Source of the DNA: Candidatus Heimdallarchaeota archaeon
GTDB lineage: Archaea > Asgardarchaeota > Heimdallarchaeia > JABLTI01
Assembly (NCBI GenBank): GCA_030614005.1
Contig: JAUWKS010000066.1
Span: 1-17,788, forward strand
DNA length: 17,788 nt
Reading direction: 5' to 3'
The notes beneath the pieces are model-generated. The model was not told where the DNA came from, did no database searches, and worked only from the letters and a program-made list of their open reading frames with translations. This document shows positions 1 to 10,917 of the stretch, piece by piece. The position numbers and the translations under genes were made by a program. Position 1 is the stretch's first letter. Each line of letters begins with the position of its first letter.

Positions 1-651
1 CTTTTACTCGTCAATAATTTCACAGAAAGAGATGACTTTACTAAAATGAAATTCTTTGATGAAACTCTATTCACAATAACTGTTGGAGGACAAGTTTATC
101 TTTATGATTTTTCTGAACTAATAATTCCTGATAATGATTTCTCTAATTGTGACTATGGATTTATCTCAAGAGATGGAGGAGGATTTATTGATGTTATCTT
201 AAAAGATAATATTGTATATCTAAGCACAGGAGCAAGCTTAGTTTTAGTGGATATAAACAACAGAAATAATTTTGAAGAAATACAAACCATAACCGACGGG
301 AATTATTATACATTGGATCTTGAAGAAAACCTACTGTTTGCGAGAGGATCAAATTCAGTTCAGCTTCTAGATATATCTAATTATAATAGTATAGGACAAA
401 CTGAACTCTTTGTAAATAACACTTACCTCTCAAATATTGCAGTAGAAAAGGACTATGTAGCCGTTTCAAACATCATAAAAGGAGCTGACATACTTCTCTT
501 TCAACTTCAATATCCTGACACAGAATCATCAAAAATAATTTGGCCATATATAGTTGGTCCAATTGGTGGAATAGTAATCGTTGTAGCAACGGTTTTCGGA
601 ATAATAAAAATACGAAAGAAAAAAATACAAAAAAAACAACCTGAAAATTGA
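1..651 (+). CDS. C-terminal part of an LVIVD-repeat/beta-propeller-like surface protein with a C-terminal membrane anchor (5'-truncated by window edge)
   Basis: Frame is open from position 1. LVIVD-like repeats (LVLVDINNRNN, VQLLDISNYNS). C-terminal hydrophobic helix (IIWPYIVGPIGGIVIVVATVFGII) followed by a basic stop-transfer tail (KIRKKKIQKK). Confidence 0.7.
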   Translation, partial: LLLVNNFTERDDFTKMKFFDETLFTITVGGQVYLYDFSELIIPDNDFSNCDYGFISRDGGGFIDVILKDNIVYLSTGASLVLVDINNRNNFEEIQTITDGNYYTLDLEENLLFARGSNSVQLLDISNYNSIGQTELFVNNTYLSNIAVEKDYVAVSNIIKGADILLFQLQYPDTESSKIIWPYIVGPIGGIVIVVATVFGIIKIRKKKIQKKQPEN

Positions 652-837: not shown

Positions 838-859
838 AAAACATCACAAAGAATCACCT
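838..859 (+). repeat. Left copy of a degenerate direct repeat flanking the Cas1-Cas4 module
   Basis: AAAACA-TCACAAAGAATCACCT vs AAAACAACCACAAAGAAT-ACCT at 6025-6046; 20 of 23 aligned columns identical. Confidence 0.45.
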
Positions 860-945
860 TTAGGGAAATAGATAGAAATGATATCGTAGTATTTCTTGTT
901 TCCTCTAATAGACTAATTTAGGCAATTTTTTCCAACATAAATCAG

Positions 946-1347
946 TCAAAGGATCCTTTGGATCACAACCATCAAGCATAATGGATTGAATTTCGTTAAC
1001 AAAACCAATAAAATAATTGCTATTTTGAATTTGATGATAATCTTCCTTATACTTAGTGAAAATATTTGTTTCTCAAGTGAATTTTTCTTTTTTAATTTAG
1101 ATGTTATTTCTACCATTTCATTTGATGATAAACACTTATTTTTAGTTATTGTGAAGTAATAATTCCAAACCCTCTTTACAAGAATATTATCTAAATTCAA
1201 AGAATACTTTCGTTTACTATAGAGCAAAACATTCTGTTTAGTAGCTTTTTTCAAATAATAGTTAAGTTGAGTCTTTTTCCATTTGAAGTAAGCTTGTAAT
1301 TCACTTATTTTATAGGATTTCAGCAAAAAATGACTGTGAAAGCTCAA
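946..1347 (-). CDS. Winged-helix-like protein, paralog of 4339..5022; possibly the 3' part of a pseudogene extending to ~1464
   Basis: WKKTQLNYYLKKATKQNVLLYSKRKYSLNLDNILVKRV aligns with WKKNRTSQIMQQLVKEGILLYERRKYLLNLDDPFVKRV. ITSKLKKKNSLEKQIF aligns with ITSEVKKEQKNGEKQVY. An in-frame TAA lies at 1354-1356, with an open frame upstream to 1464. Confidence 0.6.
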   Translation of the reverse strand: MSFHSHFLLKSYKISELQAYFKWKKTQLNYYLKKATKQNVLLYSKRKYSLNLDNILVKRVWNYYFTITKNKCLSSNEMVEITSKLKKKNSLEKQIFSLSIRKIIIKFKIAIILLVLLTKFNPLCLMVVIQRIL

Positions 1348-1478
1348 AGCTCTTTATCGAGCAAGTAACTTTACAACTCCTCGGATCATTTGTGCTAATT
1401 CGTATTTTGACAAATTCTTAGCTATTAATAAGCAAAATTCAGCGATAGTACTATTGCTGATACTTCATAAAAGAGAAG

Positions 1479-2210
1479 GTGAGAAAAATAATTACCCATC
1501 AGAAAAACACTGATAACCAAAAGAGAGAAGATAAAATTGGGCTGTTTGTTGATATATTAAACAATACCAACAAGACAATCACAGTAAAGCGAATAAACAA
1601 AACACCTCAAAAACTACTGCTCTATCTTTTATGGATGAAATTAGCATCTGGGGAGAAGATAACCTTAGAAAGTCAAAAAGCGCTAGCAGAGAAACTAAAC
1701 ACTCACCTTAATTCAATTAAGCCAGCACTTAGAAAATTACAGTCATTGAATTATCTCACTCTTGAGAAGGTAAAAAATAAAACAGTCGTTGAAATAAATA
1801 CAATGAATTATGATATTGTTGAATTGCTTTTTCTGATAAGCAAGAGTTTTACTCAAGAGACCTTGAAAAATCTCTCTCAAAATAAACTTCTCAATTCAAA
1901 GAATGTCAATGATGAAGAACAAAAAGAAACATTATCAGTTATCAACCATTTATTAGTAGAGACTGATGCCCAATTCCTGCAAAATAATGCAAGAGAGATT
2001 TCCAATAAAATAGCTGAAGCAATCCATGACGATTTGATTCAAGCTGAGAACAAGACTCAGGTTCTTTTAGATTCTTCTGATTATGATGTAATAATCTCAG
2101 GAACTCTGGAACATATCAAATCAATAATACCAGAACTAGAGTCAACAGGAATAAACCTCAAGCTATCTTCACAACGAAAAATAACTCGAGGAAAACAAGG
2201 TGAGATATGA
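1479..2210 (+). CDS. Winged helix-turn-helix DNA-binding protein (GTG start)
   Basis: wHTH pattern SQKALAEKLNTHLNSIKPALRKLQSLNYLTLEKVKNKTVVEIN; lies directly upstream of the Cas1-like gene. Confidence 0.7.
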   Translation: MRKIITHQKNTDNQKREDKIGLFVDILNNTNKTITVKRINKTPQKLLLYLLWMKLASGEKITLESQKALAEKLNTHLNSIKPALRKLQSLNYLTLEKVKNKTVVEINTMNYDIVELLFLISKSFTQETLKNLSQNKLLNSKNVNDEEQKETLSVINHLLVETDAQFLQNNAREISNKIAEAIHDDLIQAENKTQVLLDSSDYDVIISGTLEHIKSIIPELESTGINLKLSSQRKITRGKQGEI

Positions 2211-2225
2211 CAAGGAGATGCTGAC

Positions 2226-4322
2226 TTGGTTTCTTCCCAGAACAAAGATGGAAAAAAAACTGCTTTCTCAGCTAAAGTTGAAAACGCTATCTTGAATTTC
2301 ATTAGAGAACGAGCTCTACAAGCTATGCCATTGGATTTAACTAAGGAAGATTCAGTAATACTTGAGCAGTTTTCTTCAAGAATCAATACCCTCTTTCCGG
2401 CAACTAAAATGGAAATAGCTAAGATTGTTAATCTGCATGAAAGTACAACTTCAGATTTTTTGGAGAAGCTTCGAAGAAGCAAGAAAGTCAAATCAAGATT
2501 ATTTATGTGGTTTAATAAGAAAATCAGATTCTATATCCCATATGATATGTCTTGGCCAAGATATCTAGAATGGACATGTAAAAATTGTGAGAATTGGAAC
2601 AGGTTCAATCGTAGTTGCACATTCTATCAGGATCTTGCAATGAAAGGCTTTACAGTTGATGAACAACGCTATGTGAAACAAATCAAACCAAAACTAACTG
2701 CTTGTAAATGGAGGATTCCTCGAACAAAAAACCCAATTAAAACATTTCATTCTATTCAAGAATTTGCAGAAGAAATTTACGATTCAAATATGTGGTGGAA
2801 AGAGAATGACATGAATAACAATTACTTGCATAGTCCACAAGTTCCTCTCTCTGCTTATAGGTGCTATTTCTGTAAGAAACCGATACCTCAGTTTGGGTGG
2901 GGAGTATTGCCATTAATAGGCAGTTCACTAACATCCTGCTATTATTGCGGTTCTTTTTACAAACTGTTTTTTGATCAGACAGAAGAGAAATATTATGTGA
3001 AAGCTTCCAAAGAGAAATTTAGAGAATACTCAAGGAATTATAGATTGTTTACAGGAGGAGAAGATCCAGTTAGAGGTTATTCAAGTGTAAATTATGGACT
3101 CTCACTTTACGACTTTAATGACGAAGTTGATTTACATGATGAAATCTATGCTTTCACTTCATTCAATCTTTTTGCTTATTATAACCAATTAAAATACTTG
3201 GTCGTGAGAAAAGAGGAATATTACGATGTCCTACAAGCAAAACTAGCTGCTCATTATTCTGATATGAACATTATTTTGGCAAAAGAGCAACCTGTGAGTG
3301 CGAAACCAACAAAGCAGCAAATAGGCGCAACGCGGTTATTGCAAAAAACTGGTGTACTGAGCACTAATTATGCGATAGAATTACTTTGGAATAGGCTAGC
3401 AGTTCTTAATGAAATAAGCGACCTTGCTAACAAAAGAAAACTGCTTTTAGCTCGAGAAATCACTACAGAATTAATAACTAAAATACAGCAGATGAAGAAG
3501 AACAAGCAGATATTAACTAGCAATATCTGGAATACTATTGATGGACAAGCAGCAAATTACATGTGGGCAGTTATAAAAGAGATAATGGAAAAACAGGGTT
3601 TTGAAATGCCTAATCGCTCGAGATCAAGGCATCTTGAAAATGATCCCTTTAAGCCTTGGAGCTTTTTTCAAAGTTATTCTAATGGAAATACAGTCATTAA
3701 TGGCTCATTTAGAATGATCTCTGACTTGTATTTAGAGAAGTGTATAGAGCAAGGGTTCCCTTGGAAGGGGTTGGAAGGAATCTGTCATAGAAATACCCAT
3801 GGAGGTGAGATTGGGCTAAAATTGGATAATGAGGAAGGTCCCAAACTAGGAACGCTATCACAAACTTTGAGAATGATAGTTGACGAACGAATAAAACCGG
3901 AGATGATTTTCTCGGAAAGATTGAGAAAAAGAATACCTGTTTTTTATGTCAAAGAACAATCACAAGCCTATGTGGAGATGGAAGATAATTGTCAAAAGAT
4001 TGGTGAATTGAAAATACGGTCGGTTATATATGGGAAAGAGCAAGAAACAACGATCAGTAAAGCAATGGATTATAACATTGCAAGCATGAACAAACTGTTG
4101 GAAGACATTGCTTGGAAAGATGACACGGTAATTACTCTTGAGGGAAAGAAGTATGCTCCTTGGGCAATTGCTGCGGAAAACAAATGGGCTGCTCTCACTA
4201 GGAAACAATTAACAATAATATCTAGTTCTTTGAGTGAAATTATCAAAGACGCGGGGGAGTATTTTGCTCCCTTTAGATTGCGATTTGGTTCATCACTAGA
4301 GGAGTTTGATTTCAAGTTTTAG
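2226..4322 (+). CDS. cas1: Large, highly diverged Cas1 homolog (Asgard aCas1-like): HTH + Cys cluster + Zn ribbon + Cas1 catalytic domain
   Basis: TTG start with AGGAG SD. HTH (ATKMEIAKIVNLHESTTSDFLEKL), CKNC..C..C cluster, CYFC...CYYC ribbon. Cas1 motifs in order: TIDGQAANYMW (~EGxAAxxYF, D439), NRSRSR, NTVINGSF (~NxxLNYxY), GICH (H521), LKLDNEE (~LxxDxxE, D534/E537). Confidence 0.75.
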   Translation: MVSSQNKDGKKTAFSAKVENAILNFIRERALQAMPLDLTKEDSVILEQFSSRINTLFPATKMEIAKIVNLHESTTSDFLEKLRRSKKVKSRLFMWFNKKIRFYIPYDMSWPRYLEWTCKNCENWNRFNRSCTFYQDLAMKGFTVDEQRYVKQIKPKLTACKWRIPRTKNPIKTFHSIQEFAEEIYDSNMWWKENDMNNNYLHSPQVPLSAYRCYFCKKPIPQFGWGVLPLIGSSLTSCYYCGSFYKLFFDQTEEKYYVKASKEKFREYSRNYRLFTGGEDPVRGYSSVNYGLSLYDFNDEVDLHDEIYAFTSFNLFAYYNQLKYLVVRKEEYYDVLQAKLAAHYSDMNIILAKEQPVSAKPTKQQIGATRLLQKTGVLSTNYAIELLWNRLAVLNEISDLANKRKLLLAREITTELITKIQQMKKNKQILTSNIWNTIDGQAANYMWAVIKEIMEKQGFEMPNRSRSRHLENDPFKPWSFFQSYSNGNTVINGSFRMISDLYLEKCIEQGFPWKGLEGICHRNTHGGEIGLKLDNEEGPKLGTLSQTLRMIVDERIKPEMIFSERLRKRIPVFYVKEQSQAYVEMEDNCQKIGELKIRSVIYGKEQETTISKAMDYNIASMNKLLEDIAWKDDTVITLEGKKYAPWAIAAENKWAALTRKQLTIISSSLSEIIKDAGEYFAPFRLRFGSSLEEFDFKF

Positions 4323-4338
4323 AAGATGGTGTAAAACA

Positions 4339-5022
4339 ATGGTATATGCTCTATCAAATAAAAATGAAAAGGTAATTTCACTTGTGGAGTTATTCCTTGA
4401 ACTTGAGGAAGAAATAACAAACAATACAATCAAAGGTGAGAGCTTTTCAAAGCTCATTTTTGAATTGATAGTTATTTTAGGCAAAAGAGATTTCATAAAG
4501 ACCTATAAGATAACCAAACTGCTTCTCAAGCAATTTGTAGAATTTGGTGTAATTGAACCAAAGGGAGAAAAAGAACTTGAGGTGCTACTCCCTTGGAAAA
4601 AAAATCGTACATCTCAAATAATGCAACAATTAGTTAAAGAAGGAATTCTGTTGTACGAGAGAAGAAAATACTTGCTCAATCTGGATGATCCTTTTGTAAA
4701 GAGAGTGAAAGGGAGTATAAGATTAGGAGAGAAGGATATTGATATTGAAGAGATGATTACAAAATTCTCAGAAAAAATTTGTCCAATGATTGAGGAACAT
4801 GAATCTATAACCTCTGAAGTCAAAAAAGAACAAAAGAATGGTGAAAAACAAGTTTACCGAAAAGCAACACGACAGGAGATGAAGCAGTTCTACCGAGAGA
4901 TTTTCAGTAAATATATTGGGGAATCATTTTCTGATAATGAATTCGTTATTAAAAAAAATCTAGTATCATTGATAAAAAACAATATTTTATTGACAATAGG
5001 AATTGTTCAAAAAGAAGAGTAG
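4339..5022 (+). CDS. Winged-helix-like protein, paralog of 946..1347
   Basis: ATG at 4339 with GGTG SD preferred over the TTG at 4306 that overlaps cas1. The central segment has an HTH-wing pattern shared with 946..1347. Confidence 0.7.
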   Translation: MVYALSNKNEKVISLVELFLELEEEITNNTIKGESFSKLIFELIVILGKRDFIKTYKITKLLLKQFVEFGVIEPKGEKELEVLLPWKKNRTSQIMQQLVKEGILLYERRKYLLNLDDPFVKRVKGSIRLGEKDIDIEEMITKFSEKICPMIEEHESITSEVKKEQKNGEKQVYRKATRQEMKQFYREIFSKYIGESFSDNEFVIKKNLVSLIKNNILLTIGIVQKEE

Positions 5023-5054
5023 AGTAAGAATATCTTTTTTAATACAGGACTCCA

Positions 5055-5801
5055 TTACTCATGTTTCTTTAGCATTTTATCAGGAACTTTAGTGCAAATA
5101 ACCGCATAGCTACATTTGTTTTTTTGTAGATGGCAATCTGCCCTTGGAAATAAATCACCTGTGAGCATCTGTTCTCGATAATTCTCGAGATTGACCTTAA
5201 AATCAGACAGATCTTCTGTTGTAACTTCTTGTGAGAACCATTCACCAGAATCATAAAAGTAGCAACCGACTTGAGAAACCTTTCTGCTGTAGGTTTGTTT
5301 GAATTCTTGACTTTCTGTTGCTAGAAGTGCATAAAATAGTAGTTCTTCGTTCAAAAAGCCACTTCTTCTCTCCGAAGATTTATACTCGACGATTCGGCAT
5401 TCATTGTCTGATAACGGATCCACCCTGTCGATCTGTCCACGCATAGTATCTGTTGCCAGGTAGAGTTCATGGGCTAAGGGATACCAATTGTTAGGGTCAA
5501 CTTGATAGCGCTGAACTTCTTGTTCCCAGAATTTTCGTAGAATTGGTTGTGTTGTTACTTTGTCTGGTGTAGGGTTTTGATTGATGACGTCATCAGCAAA
5601 ATTTTTGTAGAATTCTCGTAATTTACGATGTTCTTTCAAGCCCTTTTTGAAATGTGTGGGATAATTGGAATGATCTTTTATCCTTCGAGGACCTTCTTTC
5701 ATTTGCTGGTTTTGTTGTTTTAGTAAGTAGAACTTTAGTGAGCACTCTAAATAAGCAGTAAATTCTGTTTTGCTAAGATTAAATCGTTTGATAGTTGTCA
5801 T
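5055..5801 (-). CDS. cas4: Cas4-like PD-(D/E)XK (RecB-family) nuclease with four putative Fe-S cysteines
   Basis: C20 plus C223/C230/C236; GxxxH (H58); E112; RGQIDRVD (D125); IVEYKSS (E139/K141); ELLFY in place of the QxxxY motif. Confidence 0.8.
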   Translation of the reverse strand: MTTIKRFNLSKTEFTAYLECSLKFYLLKQQNQQMKEGPRRIKDHSNYPTHFKKGLKEHRKLREFYKNFADDVINQNPTPDKVTTQPILRKFWEQEVQRYQVDPNNWYPLAHELYLATDTMRGQIDRVDPLSDNECRIVEYKSSERRSGFLNEELLFYALLATESQEFKQTYSRKVSQVGCYFYDSGEWFSQEVTTEDLSDFKVNLENYREQMLTGDLFPRADCHLQKNKCSYAVICTKVPDKMLKKHE

Positions 5802-5960
5802 GGTTAAATAACTTATAAACAGTTTTCTTTTTTAATAGCTAAAAAATGGAATTTAAATCTTAAATTTTAGCATTTTTAGTAAAAAATAACTAAAAAGTCA
5901 ATCTCAAAATCCTCAAAAAACAGAAACAATAGTTTTTTCAAGAAAAAATAATGAAAACCT

Positions 5961-6019
5961 ATCACAAAAAATTGGGCGAAAAAAAGAAAAAAGAGAACTC
6001 ATCACAAAAAAATGGGCGA
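5961..6019 (+). repeat. Two 19-bp direct repeats with a 40-bp period
   Basis: ATCACAAAAAATTGGGCGA (5961-5979) and ATCACAAAAAAATGGGCGA (6001-6019); 18/19 identical. Confidence 0.75.
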
Positions 6020-6024
6020 GAGAG

Positions 6025-6046
6025 AAAACAACCACAAAGAATACCT
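6025..6046 (+). repeat. Right copy of the degenerate direct repeat flanking the Cas1-Cas4 module
   Basis: AAAACAACCACAAAGAATACCT; matches 838-859 with a 10-bp exact core CACAAAGAAT. Confidence 0.45.
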
Positions 6047-6215
6047 ATGAAAGGGGTCTTCTCCAACCACCTTTAATCATTTCAGCCTTTCCTAAAACTA
6101 CTCGGATAAAATGAACGAGAGAGAATCCGCTAAATATACATTTTATTCCTTTTCCCGCCTCTAATTTTCCGCTGGGCTCCCTCTGATAAGTTTGTATGAT
6201 GATGCAAATATCGAT

Positions 6216-7820
6216 TTAATTTTTGTTTATTTTTTCTCTCCAAAGAGATTTAATTAACGATATATTCACTTGATATTTCTTATAAATTCCAAAAGTTAAG
6301 AGAAATTTACTTAATAATCTATTAGAATGAATTTCGTCCTGGGAATTATTGCCCAATATTTTTTCTTGTAATAAGAATAATTCATCAGTTGGGTGATAAA
6401 GTGTTGCACCTCTTACAGTTGGAATAAGATTCTTCACAAGTTTTTCCAAATCATCTGAAGGGCGGATTGGTAATTTATAAGGATGTGAAGAAGCAGACCT
6501 AAATGTTATGTTATTGTAGTATTTTTGTAGAAAGGGCATTAATTCTTGATTTGTGTTAGTTAGATGTTTAAGCAGCTTTCTAATTGTAATTCCATAATCA
6601 TTCTTATAATTTTGCAGATCACTTTTTGAAAATATACTAGTTTTATGGAGGATGGCACGAAAATAATAACCTAAGCCAATTATAGAGACCTTAGGTAAAT
6701 AGGAGAAATCAAAAAAACCATCTGTTGTTATTCTTTTGGAATTAAATCCATGAAAAGACAAATTTTGAATGTTATTTTGTAGCATTCTAATGAAATCTTG
6801 AGATTTTTTTGGATGTAATGAACCAATCAAATCAGCAATTTTCATTTTATCTTTTGCTAAAACATTTACTTGAAATCCACCTCCCTTTTTGGAGAAGAAA
6901 TGGGATTCAATATCATTTACTTCTAAATACTTTTGAAAATCCTTTGAATAATTTTCACTTATAGAACAAAAGACTATCTGATTCTTAAAAGAACCATCAG
7001 CATCAAACGCACCACGCCAATACAAACTCCGGTAAGGTTCACCCAATTTTTGAAAGATAAGAGGTTCTCGTAATGTGTTATATTTTGGTTCATCGATTGC
7101 TTGATTCGTTAGAAAATTAAACAAACGAACAGTCCAGAGAAGATTTAATTTTACTATCCAAGCACCTCCCGTTTTCATTAGTTTTCCATTTTTCGAGAAT
7201 TGTTCATTTAGCAAACTAGTAACGAATTCAATATGTTCTTTTGTTTCATCTGCAACAATAATCCAATATTGTCTTAAATTTCCATCACCATTGCAGATTC
7301 CACAGAGATAAGCCAATTTATTTGTTACACTCGTAGGAAAAGTGAAGGCTTCTCCTCGAGCGCTCGTAAAAGGAATATTTCCAGCATCATTCACAGGGAG
7401 AGATAATTCTAGAATAATTTCCTGCGCACAGCGAAATAATGGAAAGGGCAACGCTCCCTGTTCAAGGTACTTACAAATAATATCCCGCCAGGCGGTGATG
7501 GTCTTGTTTATTGAGCGATAAAAGTAATCTCGAGCCACTTCAGCTATGGGAAGGGTTCGTTCTTGAATTTTGGTTCGAATCTCGTCTGTCAGGATAAGGA
7601 ATGGAAATCGAGCGATGATCCTATCCCTTGCACCTTTTCGCACAAAGTCTATCTTTCGTACCATTATTCCATAGATGTTAACGAAGGAAAGGTCATTATT
7701 AATTACAACACCGATAGCAGATGTTCGAAGGATACTATTTGCTGTCTCCCAGTCGTTGTATGATGTGGGTTCTTCATCATATAGCAATGGATCCATAGAC
7801 CAATGGAGATAAGTAGCCAT
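6216..7820 (-). CDS. Stand-alone double-motif LAGLIDADG endonuclease-like protein with N- and C-terminal extensions
   Basis: LAYLCGICNGDG (D179) and YWRGAFDADGSF (D275). No intein splice motifs seen; has its own GAGGA SD. Confidence 0.8.
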   Translation of the reverse strand: MATYLHWSMDPLLYDEEPTSYNDWETANSILRTSAIGVVINNDLSFVNIYGIMVRKIDFVRKGARDRIIARFPFLILTDEIRTKIQERTLPIAEVARDYFYRSINKTITAWRDIICKYLEQGALPFPLFRCAQEIILELSLPVNDAGNIPFTSARGEAFTFPTSVTNKLAYLCGICNGDGNLRQYWIIVADETKEHIEFVTSLLNEQFSKNGKLMKTGGAWIVKLNLLWTVRLFNFLTNQAIDEPKYNTLREPLIFQKLGEPYRSLYWRGAFDADGSFKNQIVFCSISENYSKDFQKYLEVNDIESHFFSKKGGGFQVNVLAKDKMKIADLIGSLHPKKSQDFIRMLQNNIQNLSFHGFNSKRITTDGFFDFSYLPKVSIIGLGYYFRAILHKTSIFSKSDLQNYKNDYGITIRKLLKHLTNTNQELMPFLQKYYNNITFRSASSHPYKLPIRPSDDLEKLVKNLIPTVRGATLYHPTDELFLLQEKILGNNSQDEIHSNRLLSKFLLTFGIYKKYQVNISLIKSLWREKINKN

Positions 7821-7992
7821 AGTATTATCCTCTTGAATTTATGTTTTGTTTATACTATTAAATACCCCTTTGTACAACTATCCGAAAAGTAAAGGATCAG
7901 TTTGCCAATTAATTACTACCATAGAGTAATTCCTCTAAGCTTTGTTTGTACGATTAATATTAACTCACCGAAATTAACAATAAAATACTAAA

Positions 7993-8154
7993 TTATTCCT
8001 CTATTTTCTTGCACAAGAAACTGTCTTCTTCTAAAGTGATTCCTAAAATGTCACCTTTCTTTAAATTCAAAGACTCAACAATTTCTTTTGGAACTATGAA
8101 TTGTAATGAAGCTTTGTTTTGCACCAACTTCCTTTTGAATACTATTTTTGCCAT
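7993..8154 (-). CDS. AbrB/MazE/SpoVT-family DNA-binding protein, 53 aa (not in the ORF track)
   Basis: Manual translation: MAKIVFKRKLVQNKASLQFIVPKEIVESLNLKKGDILGITLEEDSFLCKKIEE. Carries the AbrB signature (vPKEI.E.L.LK.GD); GAGGG SD upstream. Confidence 0.85.
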   Translation of the reverse strand: MAKIVFKRKLVQNKASLQFIVPKEIVESLNLKKGDILGITLEEDSFLCKKIEE

Positions 8155-8170
8155 TTTTTACCCTCTTATG

Positions 8171-8255
8171 CAATGCTTAAGCAATTATTACATCATGCGT
8201 AAGATTTATATCTATGTTTCTACTTACAATATACTTAAGCAATACTTAAGTATTG
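8171..8255. promoter_or_regulatory. Divergent abrB/cas7 promoter region with repeated CTTAAG-centred palindromic operators
   Basis: Perfect 16-bp palindrome CAATACTTAAGTATTG (8240-8255), TGCTTAAGCA (8174-8183), ATACTTAAGC (8231-8240), and TATA-like TTTATAT (8205-8211). Confidence 0.6.
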
Positions 8256-8275
8256 TTCGAATTTGGTGAAAAAGA

Positions 8276-9040
8276 ATGAACGTCTCTCGTAAATTTAAAA
8301 GAATAAAAATAGAAATGCGAACACCAATTGCAAAACCAGGCAATGGGCAAATTAGTAACGGAAAGATAAACAACTTACTGCTAATTGGAAATGGAACCGG
8401 GAAAGAAGGAAAGAGATACTTAGTGAAAGGACTTCGAGGACTGCTAAATCACTCAATGATGACGATAGCAGAACAAAAAGGAATAGAGATATGCCATTCG
8501 TCAAATAAAGTGGAAACACAAAGTGGAGAGAATTTACTACCAGCAAATTTCCACCCAAACGGTGCATGTTACCCGGAAAATGAGTGCATTAGACACTGGT
8601 TGATGGGATCAATCAATAAGAGATCAGTGTTGCGGTTTAAACCTGTGGTTATTGTATCTGAGAACGGAAAAAGAAAAGCTACAGGAGGGCAAAAAATGCA
8701 CATCGCTACAGAAAATCGAAATAGCCTAATGAAAGACACAATGAAAGCTATCCAAGATTTTGGGGATAGATACATAGCTGGGAAGTTCACACTAGTAATT
8801 GAATTATTGCGAGAACTTTCTCAAGAAGAATTAGGATTCCTATTGAAAAGCATACTCAATTTTCCAGAGATGGGGTTCGGGGGGGCAGTAAACAATGGAT
8901 CGGGGGAAATCATCTTAGAAAAAGTAGCATTACAAGAAGTGGTTCGAACAAGAGCTATTGGGAAAAAAGGAACAATAATCGAGGAGGAGAAAGAGAAAAA
9001 CCTTTGGAAAGAGATGGAGGAGGGGCTTGCATCTTGGTAA
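8276..9040 (+). CDS. cas7: Cas7-group RAMP protein (Csm3-like; ARAMP-type)
   Basis: N-terminal strand + TP; KGLRGLL (~SLKGxLR); Cys/His knuckle CHS...ACYPENECIRHWLMGS (~C..C.LFGS); SVLRF; C-terminal G-rich loop GFGGAVNNGSG. Confidence 0.8.
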   Translation: MNVSRKFKRIKIEMRTPIAKPGNGQISNGKINNLLLIGNGTGKEGKRYLVKGLRGLLNHSMMTIAEQKGIEICHSSNKVETQSGENLLPANFHPNGACYPENECIRHWLMGSINKRSVLRFKPVVIVSENGKRKATGGQKMHIATENRNSLMKDTMKAIQDFGDRYIAGKFTLVIELLRELSQEELGFLLKSILNFPEMGFGGAVNNGSGEIILEKVALQEVVRTRAIGKKGTIIEEEKEKNLWKEMEEGLASW

Positions 9041-9972
9041 CAAAGAGGATCTTTACTCTCGAGGGAAAATTACTGACACCAATAATAACACCCTCATTAG
9101 TAACAAAGAATGGTTCTTGTAGATGTAAAGTGCTGCGAAATTTAACATCAGAGAAAAAACCACTAAGAACATACATTGGTAAACTAGTAAAAGGAGAACG
9201 AAAAGCACCAGCAAAACAATTAGCATACAGAGGATTTGTGAGAATAACAACCGTAGATTGGAATAACGAAAGAGGGAGAAAGAACATTCAAAACTTTTTC
9301 AAAAGAGAACACCTGGGTAAGAAAACAAATGAAGGATTTGGTATGGTTCAATGGGTAAATTACAAAGAGGGACCATACAAACCAGTGGAACAAGAACAAA
9401 AGAGAAAAAAATTAAAGTTTAGAAAAGGGTTGGGACCAAATTATCCTAAAGAATTACAAAGATTGATTATAGCATTAATGCTTCACGATTTTGTGCATAC
9501 AGAGAAACATCCGAGCAAGATATTCAAAGAAATAACGATTAATGATGTAGAAATTAGAACTGCCTGTTTGAACCATCACAACGGAACAACTAATGAAAAC
9601 ATACTACTGCCTTTGATTAGATATTACGATGGATTAGCTTCTTACATAACGAGAAAGAAACCTTTCAAAACTTTAACGAGATATGACTATCAAAATGGGA
9701 AAATAGCATTCGAACAATTAGCAGAAGAAATAGAAGAAAGACAAGATTCCGCATACAAACTATACAATTACATCTACTACTCAAAAGAATTAAAGCGAAT
9801 AGTGGAATCTATGACTTACGGACAGAACAGCCTGAGAAACCACTTGCTATTAATGGTAAATTTAGCAATAAATGACTATCTAAGCAGAAAAATAATAATA
9901 GCAAATGGGGCAATAATCAATAGAAATAACAACCAAAAGACTAAAAAATCAATCTCAGAATCGGCAACTTGA
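9034..9972 (+). CDS. cas5: Cas5-group RAMP fused to a Cas10-type circularly permuted HD nuclease domain
   Basis: TTG at 9034 with GGAGG SD, overlapping the cas7 stop. RAMP start (FTLEGKLLTPII) and G-loop HLGKKTNEGFG. HD motifs LHD (H151/D152), NHH (H181/H182), YDGLAS..R (D199), C-terminal SLRNHLL (H270). Confidence 0.75.
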   Translation: MVTKRIFTLEGKLLTPIITPSLVTKNGSCRCKVLRNLTSEKKPLRTYIGKLVKGERKAPAKQLAYRGFVRITTVDWNNERGRKNIQNFFKREHLGKKTNEGFGMVQWVNYKEGPYKPVEQEQKRKKLKFRKGLGPNYPKELQRLIIALMLHDFVHTEKHPSKIFKEITINDVEIRTACLNHHNGTTNENILLPLIRYYDGLASYITRKKPFKTLTRYDYQNGKIAFEQLAEEIEERQDSAYKLYNYIYYSKELKRIVESMTYGQNSLRNHLLLMVNLAINDYLSRKIIIANGAIINRNNNQKTKKSISESAT

Positions 9973-10035
9973 TGCGGAGAAATGCAAAGGAATAAAAGCA
10001 TTCGCAAAAGTGCTAGAGATGTTGAGATGCATCTA
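9971..10035 (+). ncRNA. Candidate structured RNA element downstream of cas5-HD (speculative)
   Basis: Hairpin TGCG[GAGA]AATGC-loop-GCATT-CGCA and hairpin AGATG-loop-CATCT. Two similar motifs GATGCGGAGAAATGCA (9971-9986) and GATGTTGAGATGCA (10018-10031), 31 nt apart. Confidence 0.25.
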
Positions 10036-10149
10036 ATCCTTGACCATGAACAAAACTAACTCAAGAGAGATAATCCAACTCGAAGAATGAGAAGGCTCGG
10101 AGCATAGGCAGGGAAAAGCCAACAGAAAAAGTCGGTAGGAGACAGAAAA

Positions 10150-10917
10150 ATTTACTACGTAGCTGAAGTTCGCGATACAATTAGAGTAATCCCCAAGAGA
10201 TTTGGCGAAGACCTAGAAGAAGTTGTACTAGAAATATGTAGAGAGACATTTGAGGGTACAATCAGCAAAGAATTAGGACTTACTATAGTTGTAGTTGATC
10301 TCTTGGAGATAGGTCCTGGAAGACTTGTTCCCGGTGATGGAGCAGCATTCTATGACGTTATATTTAGTACTTTGAATTATTTACCAGAAGATAGAGAATT
10401 TATTCTTGGCGATGTTGTAGAAGTAACTGATTTCGGTGTCTTCTTACGACTTGGCTGTGTTGATGCACTATGCCATGTTAGTCAAGTTGCTGATGATTAC
10501 TATTCTTATAGCTCAAAACAAGGTGTCTTATTAGGGCGCGAAAGTGGGAAGACTATTAGTGTTGGTGATAGAGTACGAGCTAGAATAATTGCTGTAACTA
10601 TTGGAAAATCCCAAATAAGAATTGGAGTAACAATGAGACAAGCAGGTCTAGGTGTTGAAAGTTGGGTAGAGGAATGGAAGAAAGCTTCCGCCACTGCAAA
10701 AGATAAGAAACCTGCTGGAAAGGACAAAGCGACTAAAGGAAAAGCTGATAAAAAAACTAAATCCGATTCAAAAGATAAATCTAGTTCAAAATCCACAACA
10801 AAGAAGGCTACTACAAAAAAAGCTACAACAAAGAAACCTGCTAAAAAGAAGACTGCCGATAAGAAACCTGCCGAAAAGAAAACTACAGCAAAGAAGTCCA
10901 CAACCAAAAAGAAATGA
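10150..10917 (+). CDS. rpoE1: DNA-directed RNA polymerase subunit E' (Rpo7), probable ATT start, Lys/Thr-rich C-terminal tail
   Basis: The frame upstream of the tracked 10303 start reads (I)YYVAEVRDTIRVIPKRFGEDLEEVVLEICRETFEG, the canonical Rpo7 N-terminus. S1 domain GVFLRLGCVDALCHVSQV; IGVTMRQAGLG motif. Confidence 0.95.
   Translation: MYYVAEVRDTIRVIPKRFGEDLEEVVLEICRETFEGTISKELGLTIVVVDLLEIGPGRLVPGDGAAFYDVIFSTLNYLPEDREFILGDVVEVTDFGVFLRLGCVDALCHVSQVADDYYSYSSKQGVLLGRESGKTISVGDRVRARIIAVTIGKSQIRIGVTMRQAGLGVESWVEEWKKASATAKDKKPAGKDKATKGKADKKTKSDSKDKSSSKSTTKKATTKKATTKKPAKKKTADKKPAEKKTTAKKSTTKKK

Follow-up and report, generated by a model that had tools for sequence, protein, structure and literature searches.

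The locus analyzed here has its closest described relatives in the ARAMP class, a class reportedly named by Makarova et al. 2020, CRISPR J 3:156. According to the published summaries, ARAMP loci are array-less, type III-derived and characterized by diverged Cas5 and Cas7 proteins, occur mostly with a distinct Cas1 and with PD-(D/E)xK or HNH nucleases, and have been catalogued without experimental data (PMC8730458, PMC12669027). Array-less diverged Cas5 and Cas7, together with extra nucleases, were also described as HRAMP in haloarchaea, for which a defence role through a mechanism that is not CRISPR-like was predicted (Makarova et al. 2019, FEMS Microbiol Lett 366:fnz079). The relation between the two classes is termed distant in the literature, and the published opinion is that the mechanisms of both probably differ from CRISPR and are possibly non-programmable.

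The island under study occupies positions 838-10149 of the window, i.e., the whole 17,788-nt stretch of DNA that was analyzed, in a Heimdallarchaeota genome of 3.6 Mb (126 contigs, 90% complete). The following features were recognized:

946-1347, minus strand: ORF of 133 aa, outside the duplicated block described below
1479-2210, plus strand: p243, winged-helix protein of 243 aa that opens the Cas1 operon
2226-4322, plus strand: Cas1-like protein of 698 aa, with an N-terminal wHTH, a Cys-rich (Zn-ribbon-like) region and a complete two-domain Cas1 fold
4306-5022, plus strand: p238, protein of 238 aa with a wHTH-like core and a conserved LPW...RKY motif
5055-5801, minus strand: Cas4-like PD-(D/E)XK nuclease with four conserved Cys (Fe-S type)
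5940-6019, no strand assigned: two 40-nt direct repeats (repeat-search family D2, 80% identity)
6216-7820, minus strand: LAGLIDADG-HTH protein of 534 aa, with a conserved N-domain and two LAGLIDADG motifs
7993-8154, minus strand: AbrB/MazE-type DNA-binding protein of 53 aa, divergent from cas7
8276-9040, plus strand: Cas7-like (Csm3-like) RAMP of 254 aa with a G-rich loop
9004-9972, plus strand: Cas5-HD, 322 aa, a Cas5-like RAMP domain followed by a Cas10-type HD domain
9945-10148, plus strand: structured RNA-like element of ~200 nt, supported by covariation

This arrangement fits the published ARAMP descriptions, with which it shares the Asgard host, the lack of an array, extremely diverged Cas7 and Cas5 proteins nearest to type III, a distinct form of Cas1, and associated PD-(D/E)xK and HD nucleases (PMC8730458, PMC12669027). 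Since it fits the named class, the locus was considered to add a member to a kind already known, the array-less type III-derived CRISPR relatives of Heimdall-type Asgard archaea; relatives were Heimdallarchaeota MAGs. A LAGLIDADG-HTH protein, an AbrB protein, a 3' structured RNA and a two-unit mosaic are not mentioned in the ARAMP summaries, while HRAMP, compared by description, differs in its host lineage and is described without Cas1 or Cas4. The first-pass annotation had named the aCas1/ARAMP identity, which held, and had spoken of an uncharacterised system; being already catalogued, the system is not an unnamed one. The four cas-like genes that it proposed (Cas1-like, Cas4-like, Cas7-like and Cas5-HD) each obtained independent support (Pfam, PADLOC, AF2, Foldseek, hhalign), and both the Cas1 and the RAMP folds were found, but its parts list had missed the LAGLIDADG-HTH gene, the AbrB/MazE gene and the RNA-like element.

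Canonical CRISPR components were absent at both scales searched. In the window, neither a tandem nor a spaced repeat array was found by repeat search, and ORFs of at least 100 aa within 838-10149 gave no Pfam match to Cas2, Cas6, Cas3, Cas10 palm or PolB, in agreement with the absences initially listed. Genome-wide, our k-mer chain scan detected no CRISPR-like array in the 126 contigs, and no match above cut-off was obtained for Pfam Cas1, Cas2 and Cas6, Csm1 or the Cas3 core; a canonical locus that could serve the island in trans was not found in this 90% complete genome.

The effector genes resemble the type III core (Csm3/Cmr4 Cas7, Csm4/Cmr3 Cas5, Cas10 HD). Pfam RAMPs was matched by 21 of the 23 Cas7-like family members, and the family profile matched Csm3 (4qts_C, E 1.9e-4); a Cys/His cluster was conserved (C73, H93, C98, C104), and the position used by Csm3 for RNA cleavage showed no conserved Asp. 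The Cas5-HD gene, whose start overlaps the end of cas7, neighbours cas7 without exception. In its AF2 model (pLDDT 87), residues 11-130 matched RAMPs, including Csm4/Cmr-type ones, and residues 148-310 matched the N-terminal HD domain of Csm1/Cas10 (Z 8.2 and 7.9; E 0.0026 against the PADLOC Cas10 HD part), with H161-D162, H191/H192, D209 and H280 invariant or nearly so. As Csm4, Cmr, Csf and Cas6 scored alike (Z 6-8), the modelled RAMP domain is only putatively Cas5-like. Different from the type III core, the island has no Cas10 palm/cyclase, Cas11, Cas6, crRNA array or cOA signalling parts, and its HD domain is fused to a RAMP protein rather than to Cas10. Subtype IV-C, whose large subunit Csf1 carries a Cas10-related HD, is by description likewise derived from type III by reduction, a Cas10-type HD nuclease supplying the only enzymatic domain of its minimal complex of Cas5 and Cas7, yet type IV systems normally have CRISPR arrays and Cas6-like processing, and their HD belongs to the large subunit instead of a RAMP. 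Structure prediction weakly pointed to a Cas7/Cas5-HD complex: its ipSAE of 0.56 (best control 0.00; contact agreement between runs of at least 68%, partner pLDDT of at least 75) is a level that 58 of 80 solved complexes attained, as did 2 of 110 mismatches, in a range (<=0.60) where predictions are often wrong, and the pass may reflect resemblance to solved type III complexes. Upstream of cas7, the 53-aa AbrB/MazE protein (Pfam MazE_antitoxin, E 2e-6, 28.1 bits, above cut-off) is a probable repressor of the cassette; a homologous minus-strand coding signal was seen in other copies. It is the real gene of this stretch, where the 86-aa plus-strand ORF of the first reading (8009-8269) is probably spurious.

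The remaining genes encode putative DNA-handling proteins. For the Cas1-like model (pLDDT 89.5), all of the 50 top PDB matches in Foldseek were Cas1 or casposase, the best being 4n06_B (E 1.2e-7, ~340 aligned columns covering both Cas1 domains), and hhalign against canonical Asgard Cas1 gave a probability of 94.7% (E 6e-8). The protein is a very divergent Cas1 and its family is tiny (42 matches with E <= 1e-3 among 1.84 billion representatives); D439, H521 and D534 are its putative catalytic residues, the subfamily having Asp in place of Glu as the first one. The p243 protein, faintly similar to phage replication-initiator/DnaD-type wHTH proteins (phrog_428, E 3.9e-6; Pfam HTH_36, E 0.0018, under cut-off), is conserved 5' of the Cas1-like gene in 6 loci, and p238, which had no Pfam match above cut-off and belongs to no known family, lies invariably immediately 3' of it. 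Residues 90-195 of p238 were 33-44% identical (blastp) to the 133-aa ORF at 946-1347, whose best match was the p238 equivalent in the second-type module of G081:C6; this ORF is probably a p238-like wHTH remnant derived from another Cas1-module subtype. The Cas4-like nuclease matched Pfam PDDEXK_1 (E 3e-12) and PADLOC Cas4/Cas4b (E 5e-6 to 1e-5), with the four Cys, D125 and K141 conserved, and C20, D125, K141 and C223 invariant. LAGLIDADG_3 was matched by all 12 aligned members of the LAGLIDADG-HTH family (best E 3.4e-8; E 1.3e-4 against PI-PfuI 1dq3), and both catalytic Asp (D179 and D275) are kept, whereas the C-terminal XRE-type HTH is present in only part of the family (HTH_3 in 4 of the 12). 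The LAGLIDADG stop and the Cas4 start are separated by a 415-nt spacer that folded no better than its shuffles (z -0.3) and contains the two 40-nt repeats, candidate protein-binding sites that are retained in a second copy of this region (C78, at 7449-7507).

That copy bears on whether the island moves as a whole. The 4.9-kb block 1325-6193, comprising p243, Cas1-like, p238, Cas4 and the intergenic repeats, has a paralogous copy at C78:12137-7276 (87% identity, blastn) with unique flanks and no RAMP pair, and weaker homology runs on to 7872 across the LAGLIDADG gene (75% identity for 6925-7872). Synonymous divergence from C78 was 0.3-0.5 for the block and 1.4 for the LAGLIDADG gene; since the latter is much older, the copy may reflect recombination rather than transposition. 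A TnpB gene adjoins the C78 copy. Casposons (Cas1-solo) are similar in having a Cas1-fold integrase without CRISPR context (casposase 6opm was among the best structural matches) and the island's multi-kb Cas1-containing block is duplicated in the genome; they differ in that no PolB, terminal inverted repeats or target-site duplication were found for the island, and its Cas1-like protein has the additional wHTH and Zn-ribbon, the Asp substitution and a LAGLIDADG-HTH partner. It seems unlikely that the entire island forms one selfish mobile system in which the Cas1-like and/or LAGLIDADG proteins move the block and Cas7/Cas5-HD with the RNA picks the insertion site, the RNA reading into the host flank like a TnpB omega-RNA or the complex working as in CRISPR-associated transposons. 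Such a reading would accommodate the duplicated block at an unrelated site and the TnpB gene beside it, the 10 Cas1-like and 7 RAMP loci of this genome, its 13-14 LAGLIDADG-HTH paralogs, which accompany a Cas1-like gene in at least 8 loci, and the repeated position of cassettes immediately 5' of housekeeping genes, where the 3' end of the RNA meets the flank. It is at odds, however, with the lack of terminal inverted repeats, target-site duplications and PolB, with the search for a perfectly empty site matched to a filled one, which found none, and with the vertical inheritance of the RAMP cassette at rpoE' in at least three species; moreover, a 10-nt motif proposed as bracketing 838-6046 occurred at chance frequency (6 matches observed, 7.6 expected).

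The synteny and divergence results pointed instead to two units, different in boundaries and ages. The order Cas5-HD and Cas7 on one strand, then LAGLIDADG, Cas1-like, p238 and Cas4 on the other, recurs in C67, C9, G081:C17, G089:C26 and G085:C397, and the arrangement of the window in G081:C42 and G083:C162. The RAMP and Cas1 modules were found together in at least 6 other loci from 5 species, a co-occurrence whose absence would have counted against the first-pass annotation. RAMP pairs without the Cas1 module were also found (three times in C9, and in C83), as were Cas1 modules standing alone (C78, G084:C48, G081:C6); the Cas1 module is copied or exchanged among genome sites. At the orthologous rpoE' site of G084:C88, Cas7 and Cas5-HD were 72-74% identical (aa) and the LAGLIDADG protein 39%; in G081:C19, which is the closest relative and has flanks 84-98% identical (aa), only fragments of Cas7 and Cas5-HD are left at this site, and the cassette is therefore dispensable there. 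Judging from these comparisons, the AbrB-Cas7-Cas5-HD-RNA cassette has been passed down at the rpoE' site and decays in sister species while the RNA persists, and the island is a mosaic of two separable units with separate histories. The initial proposal of a Cas1-mobilised element carrying RAMP cargo was not supported, as the RAMP genes lie outside the block boundaries (1325 and 6193/7872).

The fragments in G081, the p238-like remnant and the missing array, cas6 and Cas10 palm would also be expected of a decaying, now functionless type III CRISPR-Cas relic. This is very improbable, given that all eight genes are intact under purifying selection (dN/dS 0.09-0.42; 0.09 for Cas7-like against its G084 ortholog, 0.16 for Cas5-HD), catalytic residues are invariant between species, gene order is kept over many loci and species, and 37 of the phylum's 399 genomes carry the Cas5-HD family, often more than one copy of it. 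Selection and invariant residues, as read from the sequences, point to retained function.

The RNA element overlaps the final 28 nt of Cas5-HD and terminates at the rpoE' ribosome-binding site. Its fold comprises a long-range helix around a variable hairpin, a three-stem middle domain and a 3' hairpin whose stem sequence varies among copies, followed by the Shine-Dalgarno of the next gene. With the model (R1), 8 copies were retrieved from this genome, and 11 of the 12 genomes of the family gave 47; pairing was kept in 93% of cells (35-42% in slid controls), compensatory changes were found in 18 of 28 pairs, G-U pairs were consistent with the plus (coding) strand only, and Rfam gave no match. 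Overlapping the nuclease gene end and reaching the exact cassette edge beside flanking host DNA, the element recalls OMEGA systems (TnpB/IscB, whose omega-RNA overlaps the nuclease gene 3' end), yet the proteins are unrelated (RAMP/HD, not RuvC), and the analogy is one of layout only, which does not imply the flank as guide. As for the earlier suggestion of a guide source other than an array, this conserved RNA is a concrete candidate.

Because it outlives the cas genes (G081:C19, G080:C33, C94) and its 3' end lies in the ribosome-binding site of an essential downstream gene, the element may be a 5' leader or cis-regulator and not a protein partner. The effector cassette (Unit A) would then act through its proteins alone, as a non-programmable module of innate defence or abortive infection, and the RNA would be kept since cassettes directly precede essential genes. 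We regard this as possible, if rather doubtful. It agrees with the published expectation for ARAMP and HRAMP and with the intact element beside broken Cas7 and Cas5-HD genes, as well as with orphan copies, which have no Cas5-HD within 1.3 kb, lie directly 5' of rps19e (C94), of genes resembling those for RFC and ABCE1 and, in G080 and G088, of rpoE', and each end in an AGGTGA/AGGAGA-type Shine-Dalgarno 5-9 nt ahead of the start codon. Against it, the element begins within the Cas5-HD frame, ~200 nt upstream of the next gene, and one leader for many different genes would be unusual; as identical sequence and fold stand before unrelated genes, with ~20 of 30 copies examined following a Cas5-HD gene or fragment, the element travels with the cassette rather than with the host gene.

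We incline, with modest confidence, to an ARAMP locus of two units, a putative RNA-scaffolded HD effector (Unit A) and a putative DNA-handling module (Unit B); that they bind RNA, act as nucleases, have particular targets or integrate DNA is inferred. Unit B (~1325-7872), with the LAGLIDADG-HTH endonuclease, the wHTH proteins, the wHTH-Zn-Cas1 integrase homolog and Cas4, stands repeatedly beside RAMP cassettes and also alone; it would cut and join DNA either to propagate itself or to swap adjacent cassettes, and we do not think that it acquires spacers. Unit A (7873-10148) is a compact effector cassette, probably held repressed by AbrB, in which the conserved folded RNA may be the island's missing RNA partner: Cas7 subunits and Cas5-HD would assemble on this 3' transcript region as a fixed partner replacing crRNA, and the complex, once triggered, would degrade nucleic acid through its HD domain, in a role of defence or exclusion.

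Judged from sequence comparison, the island (838-10149) was found to have a two-unit architecture, consisting of a LAGLIDADG/Cas1-like/Cas4 module (about 1325-7872) and a cassette of AbrB, Cas7 and Cas5-HD genes and a structured RNA-like element (7873-10148). Based on ORF listing and family scans, the following features were recognized in the window:

1-651 (+): gene of a membrane-anchored protein, 3' end
946-1347 (-): 133-aa remnant, with likeness to the middle of p238
1479-2210 (+): p243, winged-helix protein
2226-4322 (+): 698-aa Cas1-like protein
4306-5022 (+): p238
5055-5801 (-): Cas4-type nuclease
between the Cas4-type nuclease and LAGLIDADG genes: spacer of 415 nt, with two 40-nt direct repeats
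6216-7820 (-): LAGLIDADG protein, 534 aa
7993-8154 (-): AbrB/MazE-type protein, 53 aa
8276-9040 (+): Cas7-like protein
9004-9972 (+): RAMP-HD (Cas5-HD) protein
3' of the island: housekeeping run rpoE'-spt4-DUF359-(97 aa)-Bud32-like kinase

An 86-aa ORF at 8009-8269 (+), antisense to the AbrB gene and without homologs, was regarded as spurious. At the other end, the window and contig C77 of the same genome (G000) start at the identical point of the membrane-anchored protein gene and share 88.6% identity over positions 1-572 of both, which suggests a recent paralog or a strain variant at an assembly break. Many contig ends of the assembly, G000:C83:18173-18399 and those of over 12 further contigs, share a repeat of ~130-225 nt (92-100% identity), probably a multi-copy element at which the assembly breaks.

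Nothing above cut-off was returned for the Cas1-like protein in direct scans of Pfam, NCBIfam and PHROGs, a PDB profile search with its family did not find Cas1, and the PADLOC Cas1 match was weak (E 1.3e-3). The family has very few members: a word-indexed search yielded 10 proteins, and of 1.84 billion representatives 42 were matched at E <= 1e-3. Of the 25 most distant hits, 4 themselves matched Pfam Cas1. When the C-terminal domain (41-sequence alignment) was compared with 12 canonical Cas1 proteins of the same class, hhalign gave a probability of 94.7% (E 6e-8) and placed D439, H521 and D534 on the Glu-His-Asp triad of Cas1; within this putative triad His and Asp are invariant or nearly so, and at the first position this subfamily has Asp where distant members have Glu. 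The AF2 model (pLDDT 89.5, pTM 0.85) contains the two-domain Cas1 fold, with an N-terminal beta-sandwich and a C-terminal helical catalytic domain, and the best 50 Foldseek matches in the PDB were all Cas1 or casposase, covering both Cas1 domains (~340 aligned columns, target TM 0.58). An additional wHTH and conserved Cys pairs were found in the N-terminal 280 residues. Because of the profile match, the confident model and the uniform Foldseek matches, the 698-aa protein is judged to be a true, extremely diverged Cas1 homolog, whose homology is visible only by profile-profile and fold comparison and does not reach a curated sequence threshold.

No Cas2 family match was found in the genome, hence no Cas2 partner for the Cas1-like protein, and the cas2 position is occupied by p238, a wHTH-like protein of no known family. 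As a Cas2 substitute p238 was rejected, its fold being wHTH-like and not ferredoxin-like. The operon p243, Cas1-like, p238, with the Cas4 gene convergent to it, recurs at five further loci in the genus, some of them close to RAMP pairs and some not. The Cas4 protein matched Pfam PDDEXK_1 (47.4 bits vs a cut-off of 22) and conserves the four cluster-binding Cys (C20, C223, C230, C236), together with D125, K141 and the D...EYK motif.

Pfam LAGLIDADG_3 was matched by all 12 aligned members of the LAGLIDADG family (the window protein alone scored 22.2 bits vs a cut-off of 22.5), with both motifs, ending in ...NGDG (D179) and ...DADG (D275), invariant and an XRE-type HTH in about one-third of the members. 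The 534-aa protein thus carries the features of a double-motif, single-chain homing endonuclease, and DNA cleavage is predicted from its motifs. Genome-wide, 13-14 LAGLIDADG paralogs and 10 ORFs with a Cas1-like domain were counted, and at least 8 loci have the two kinds of gene side by side, among them those of giant (1100-1400 aa) Cas1-like proteins. Three such giants (1124-1392 aa), with the same diverged domain near residues 680-1130, are encoded at G000:C63:37515-41651, C8:196-3570 and C9:144694-148872, each adjoining a LAGLIDADG-HTH paralog. A full-text literature search found no paper on the combination of Asgard, Cas1 and LAGLIDADG. In the favoured reading, the Cas1/Cas4/LAGLIDADG unit would cut and join DNA so that it, or its neighbours, could be exchanged.

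The spacer between the LAGLIDADG and Cas4 genes folded no better than its shuffles. Its two direct repeats (5940-6019, upstream of cas4), each ending in ...ATCACAAAAAA(A)TGGGCGA, are kept in a paralogous copy of the Cas1-Cas4 block on contig C78 and may serve one of the wHTH proteins as operators.

The C78 copy aligned at 87% identity over window 1325-6193 (C78:12137-7276) and at 75% over window 6925-7872 (C78:6524-5576). Synonymous divergence between the two copies was 0.3-0.5 for p243, Cas1-like, p238 and Cas4 vs 1.4 for the LAGLIDADG gene, which makes the copy a mosaic. A co-binned strain variant of the window locus was rejected as an explanation of C78, since the block lies there between TnpB and a transporter, in unique flanks unrelated to those of the window. 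The TnpB-type gene (G000:C78:4263-5456, -; OrfB_IS605 plus a Cas12f-like TNB domain) adjoins the LAGLIDADG end of the block. No terminal inverted or direct repeats and no target-site duplication were found at the block boundaries 1325 and 7872, and no PolB domain in any island ORF; in these respects the island differs from casposons, whose hallmarks are a family B DNA polymerase, terminal inverted repeats and target-site duplication. The 10-nt motif TCACAAAAAA, considered as a bracket of 838-6046, was discarded, as it occurs at chance frequency (6 seen vs 7.6 expected). That the whole island is a fully selfish, RNA-targeted mobile system is a rival to the reading in which the Cas1 unit would serve exchange of itself or its neighbours.

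At the rpoE' site (rpoE' being the first housekeeping gene 3' of the island), related genome G084 (contig C88) shows the same order, LAGLIDADG, Cas7, Cas5-HD, rpoE', with identities of 74% for Cas7, 72% for Cas5-HD and only 39% for LAGLIDADG. In the closest relative at this site (G081:C19; flanking proteins 84-98% identical), Cas7 and Cas5-HD are reduced to fragments, the RNA element is intact and the Cas1 unit is absent, and in G080 and G088 the element precedes rpoE' without Cas5-HD. A further rival takes the island for a decay product; in the window all genes were under purifying selection (dN/dS 0.09-0.42). Contigs from four metagenome DNA runs covered the window with short, low-depth pieces only, and no RNA run was listed as containing the locus. 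At 1287 and at 9288 the match of these contigs stops, and an unrelated sequence common to all the runs follows. These loose ends, and a 3442-to-8471 joint with sides of 21 nt, are most likely due to paralogs or chance; the loose ends may also be variant junctions of natural populations.

For the Cas7-like and Cas5-HD proteins of the window, direct scans of Pfam, NCBIfam and PHROGs gave no match above cut-off. At the family level, 21 of 23 Cas7 members matched Pfam RAMPs (as did 4 of the 6 paralogs in the genome), and the family profile matched Csm3 and type VII Cas7. The Cas5-HD model (pLDDT 87) returned CRISPR RAMP subunits in all of its best 50 Foldseek rows. Its residues 148-310 aligned with the Csm1 structure 6ifk_A (Z 8.2, rmsd 3.9, 150 aligned) and with 6mua_A (Z 7.9), values at a level that common structural arrangements can reach and accompanied by weak sequence matches; the metal-binding HD residues H161, D162, H192, D209 and H280 are invariant. 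Residues 11-130 aligned with Csm4-, Cmr-, Csf- and Cas6-type RAMPs (Z 6-8). A PDB profile search with the family gave only a marginal match to a Csm3 loop, and a protein-feature atlas search only leads below 0.8, to HD proteins. As modelled, the protein combines a RAMP fold with a Cas10-type HD nuclease domain, and nuclease activity is predicted. Since the Cas10 domain is carried by that RAMP, the label Cas5 is a reasonable one, with RAMP matches alike across the Csm4, Cmr, Csf and Cas6 types. Thus, among the protein identities proposed in the first-pass annotation, a diverged Cas1, a Cas4 and a Cas7 were all recovered, whereas for Cas5-HD the RAMP fold and the HD domain stood and the Cas5 subtype was not singled out.

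The cas7 gene overlaps cas5-HD, and in nearly every locus the two lie side by side; the AbrB/MazE gene is divergent from cas7 in the window and in other copies. Structure prediction of Cas7 with Cas5-HD scored 0.56 (best control 0.00), a mark that 58 of 80 solved complexes and 2 of 110 mismatches attained. In this range (<= 0.60) predictions are often wrong, and the score weakly suggests that the two may form a complex.

The alignment of the 3' ends of Cas5-HD genes revealed nucleotide conservation independent of the reading frame; the window ORF stops at 9972, and other copies read through the conserved stretch. RNAalifold predicted a long-range helix and a three-stem domain, with G-U pairs compatible with the coding strand only. 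A covariance model of this element (~200 nt, 9945-10148, + strand in the window) found 8 copies in the genome and 47 in 11 of the 12 genomes of the family; scanning the window against Rfam and for tRNAs gave no relevant match. Over 31 copies, in an alignment fitted to the covariance model, 93% of cells pair (vs 35-42% in slid controls) and 18 of 28 pairs show compensatory changes, values reached by none of 500 shuffles. Near the 3' end most copies have an extra 5-8-bp hairpin of conserved shape whose stem sequence varies, and the end itself is a Shine-Dalgarno-like motif, 5-9 nt ahead of the start codon of the next gene (rpoE', rps19e, RFC-like, ABCE1-like and others).

In the favoured reading, Cas7/Cas5-HD would act as an RNA-scaffolded nuclease under AbrB control. 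That the element is instead a cis leader, and the defence protein-only, is rather unlikely, and the main reason for retaining this alternative is that Cas5-HD is missing upstream of about one-third of the copies examined. More ambitious than the RNA-scaffolded nuclease, and considered improbable, is a reading in which the ~200-nt transcript would be a non-CRISPR RNA dedicated to a ribonucleoprotein of Cas7/Cas5-HD, target specificity would come from the 3' extension of that RNA into the adjoining host gene, and the LAGLIDADG/Cas1/Cas4 unit would install or exchange cassettes before essential genes; its logic resembles that of omega-RNA, here on a class 1 chassis.

Two orphan elements without intact Cas5-HD were observed in the genome: one at G000:C94:2255-2435 (-), directly before an rps19e-like start and with a few relic Cas5-HD codons upstream, and one at G000:C9:140337-140517 (-), ~2 kb from a LAGLIDADG gene and the gene of a 1392-aa Cas1-like protein. 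The rpoE' (Rpo7) gene of the window (10150-10917, +) has an apparent ATT start codon 8 nt past a GGAG motif; its frame holds no ATG, GTG or TTG from the stop at 10105 to 10303, the SHS2_Rpb7-N domain is encoded from 10150, and the ATT-TAC start also occurs in G084, G081, G080 and G088.

No CRISPR array was detected in the window, and the genome-wide array search proposed in the first-pass annotation, carried out on all 126 contigs as a custom k-mer chain scan, detected none and returned protein-coding repeats only. Pfam Cas1, Cas2 and Cas6, as well as Csm1 and Cas3 core, had no match above cut-off in the genome, and canonical Cas1 was present in 3 of the 10 genomes of the genus. The absences recorded earlier for the window (array, cas2, cas6, cas3, Cas10 palm and polB) therefore held, and the genome likely lacks a canonical CRISPR system, likely and not proven because it is 90% complete and arrays assemble poorly. 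In contrast to canonical class 1, type III CRISPR-Cas, the array, Cas6-type processing and a Cas10 with palm domains are all absent here. In PMC8730458 and PMC12669027, ARAMPs are described as array-less Asgard loci with highly diverged Cas7/Cas5 nearest to type III, most with a distinct form of Cas1 and a PD-(D/E)xK or HNH nuclease. The window agrees in its Asgard host (closest homologs in Candidatus Heimdallarchaeota archaeon), type III-like Cas7 and RAMP-HD proteins, lack of an array, Cas1-fold protein and Cas4-type PD-(D/E)XK nuclease, and members of the Cas5-HD family occur only in parts of that phylum (37 of 399 genomes). The aCas1/ARAMP identity proposed in the first-pass annotation thus agrees on each of these features, and the locus, assigned from published descriptions of the class, is very probably of ARAMP type. 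The class is already named in the literature, without experimental tests, and the locus therefore belongs to a known kind; reviews describe the mechanism of ARAMP and of its haloarchaeal counterpart HRAMP as enigmatic.

The locus is compact, intact and testable, the effector comprising three small genes and one candidate RNA and the Cas1 unit five genes, in an organism with apparently no canonical CRISPR system to confuse the results. Among the relatives of class 1 CRISPR effectors, ARAMP and HRAMP loci are the most reduced. If the cassette RNA partners Cas7/Cas5-HD, it would show a CRISPR effector working without an array, and a guided ribonucleoprotein, if real, would represent a new type of RNA-guided system that dispenses with both array and spacer acquisition. 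The position of the cassettes right before essential genes, whose ribosome-binding site they supply, is a puzzling trait of genome organisation. Movement of DNA by the Cas1-LAGLIDADG unit, if it occurs, would place a new kind of Cas1-based element beside casposons, with a bearing on the origin of CRISPR adaptation modules.
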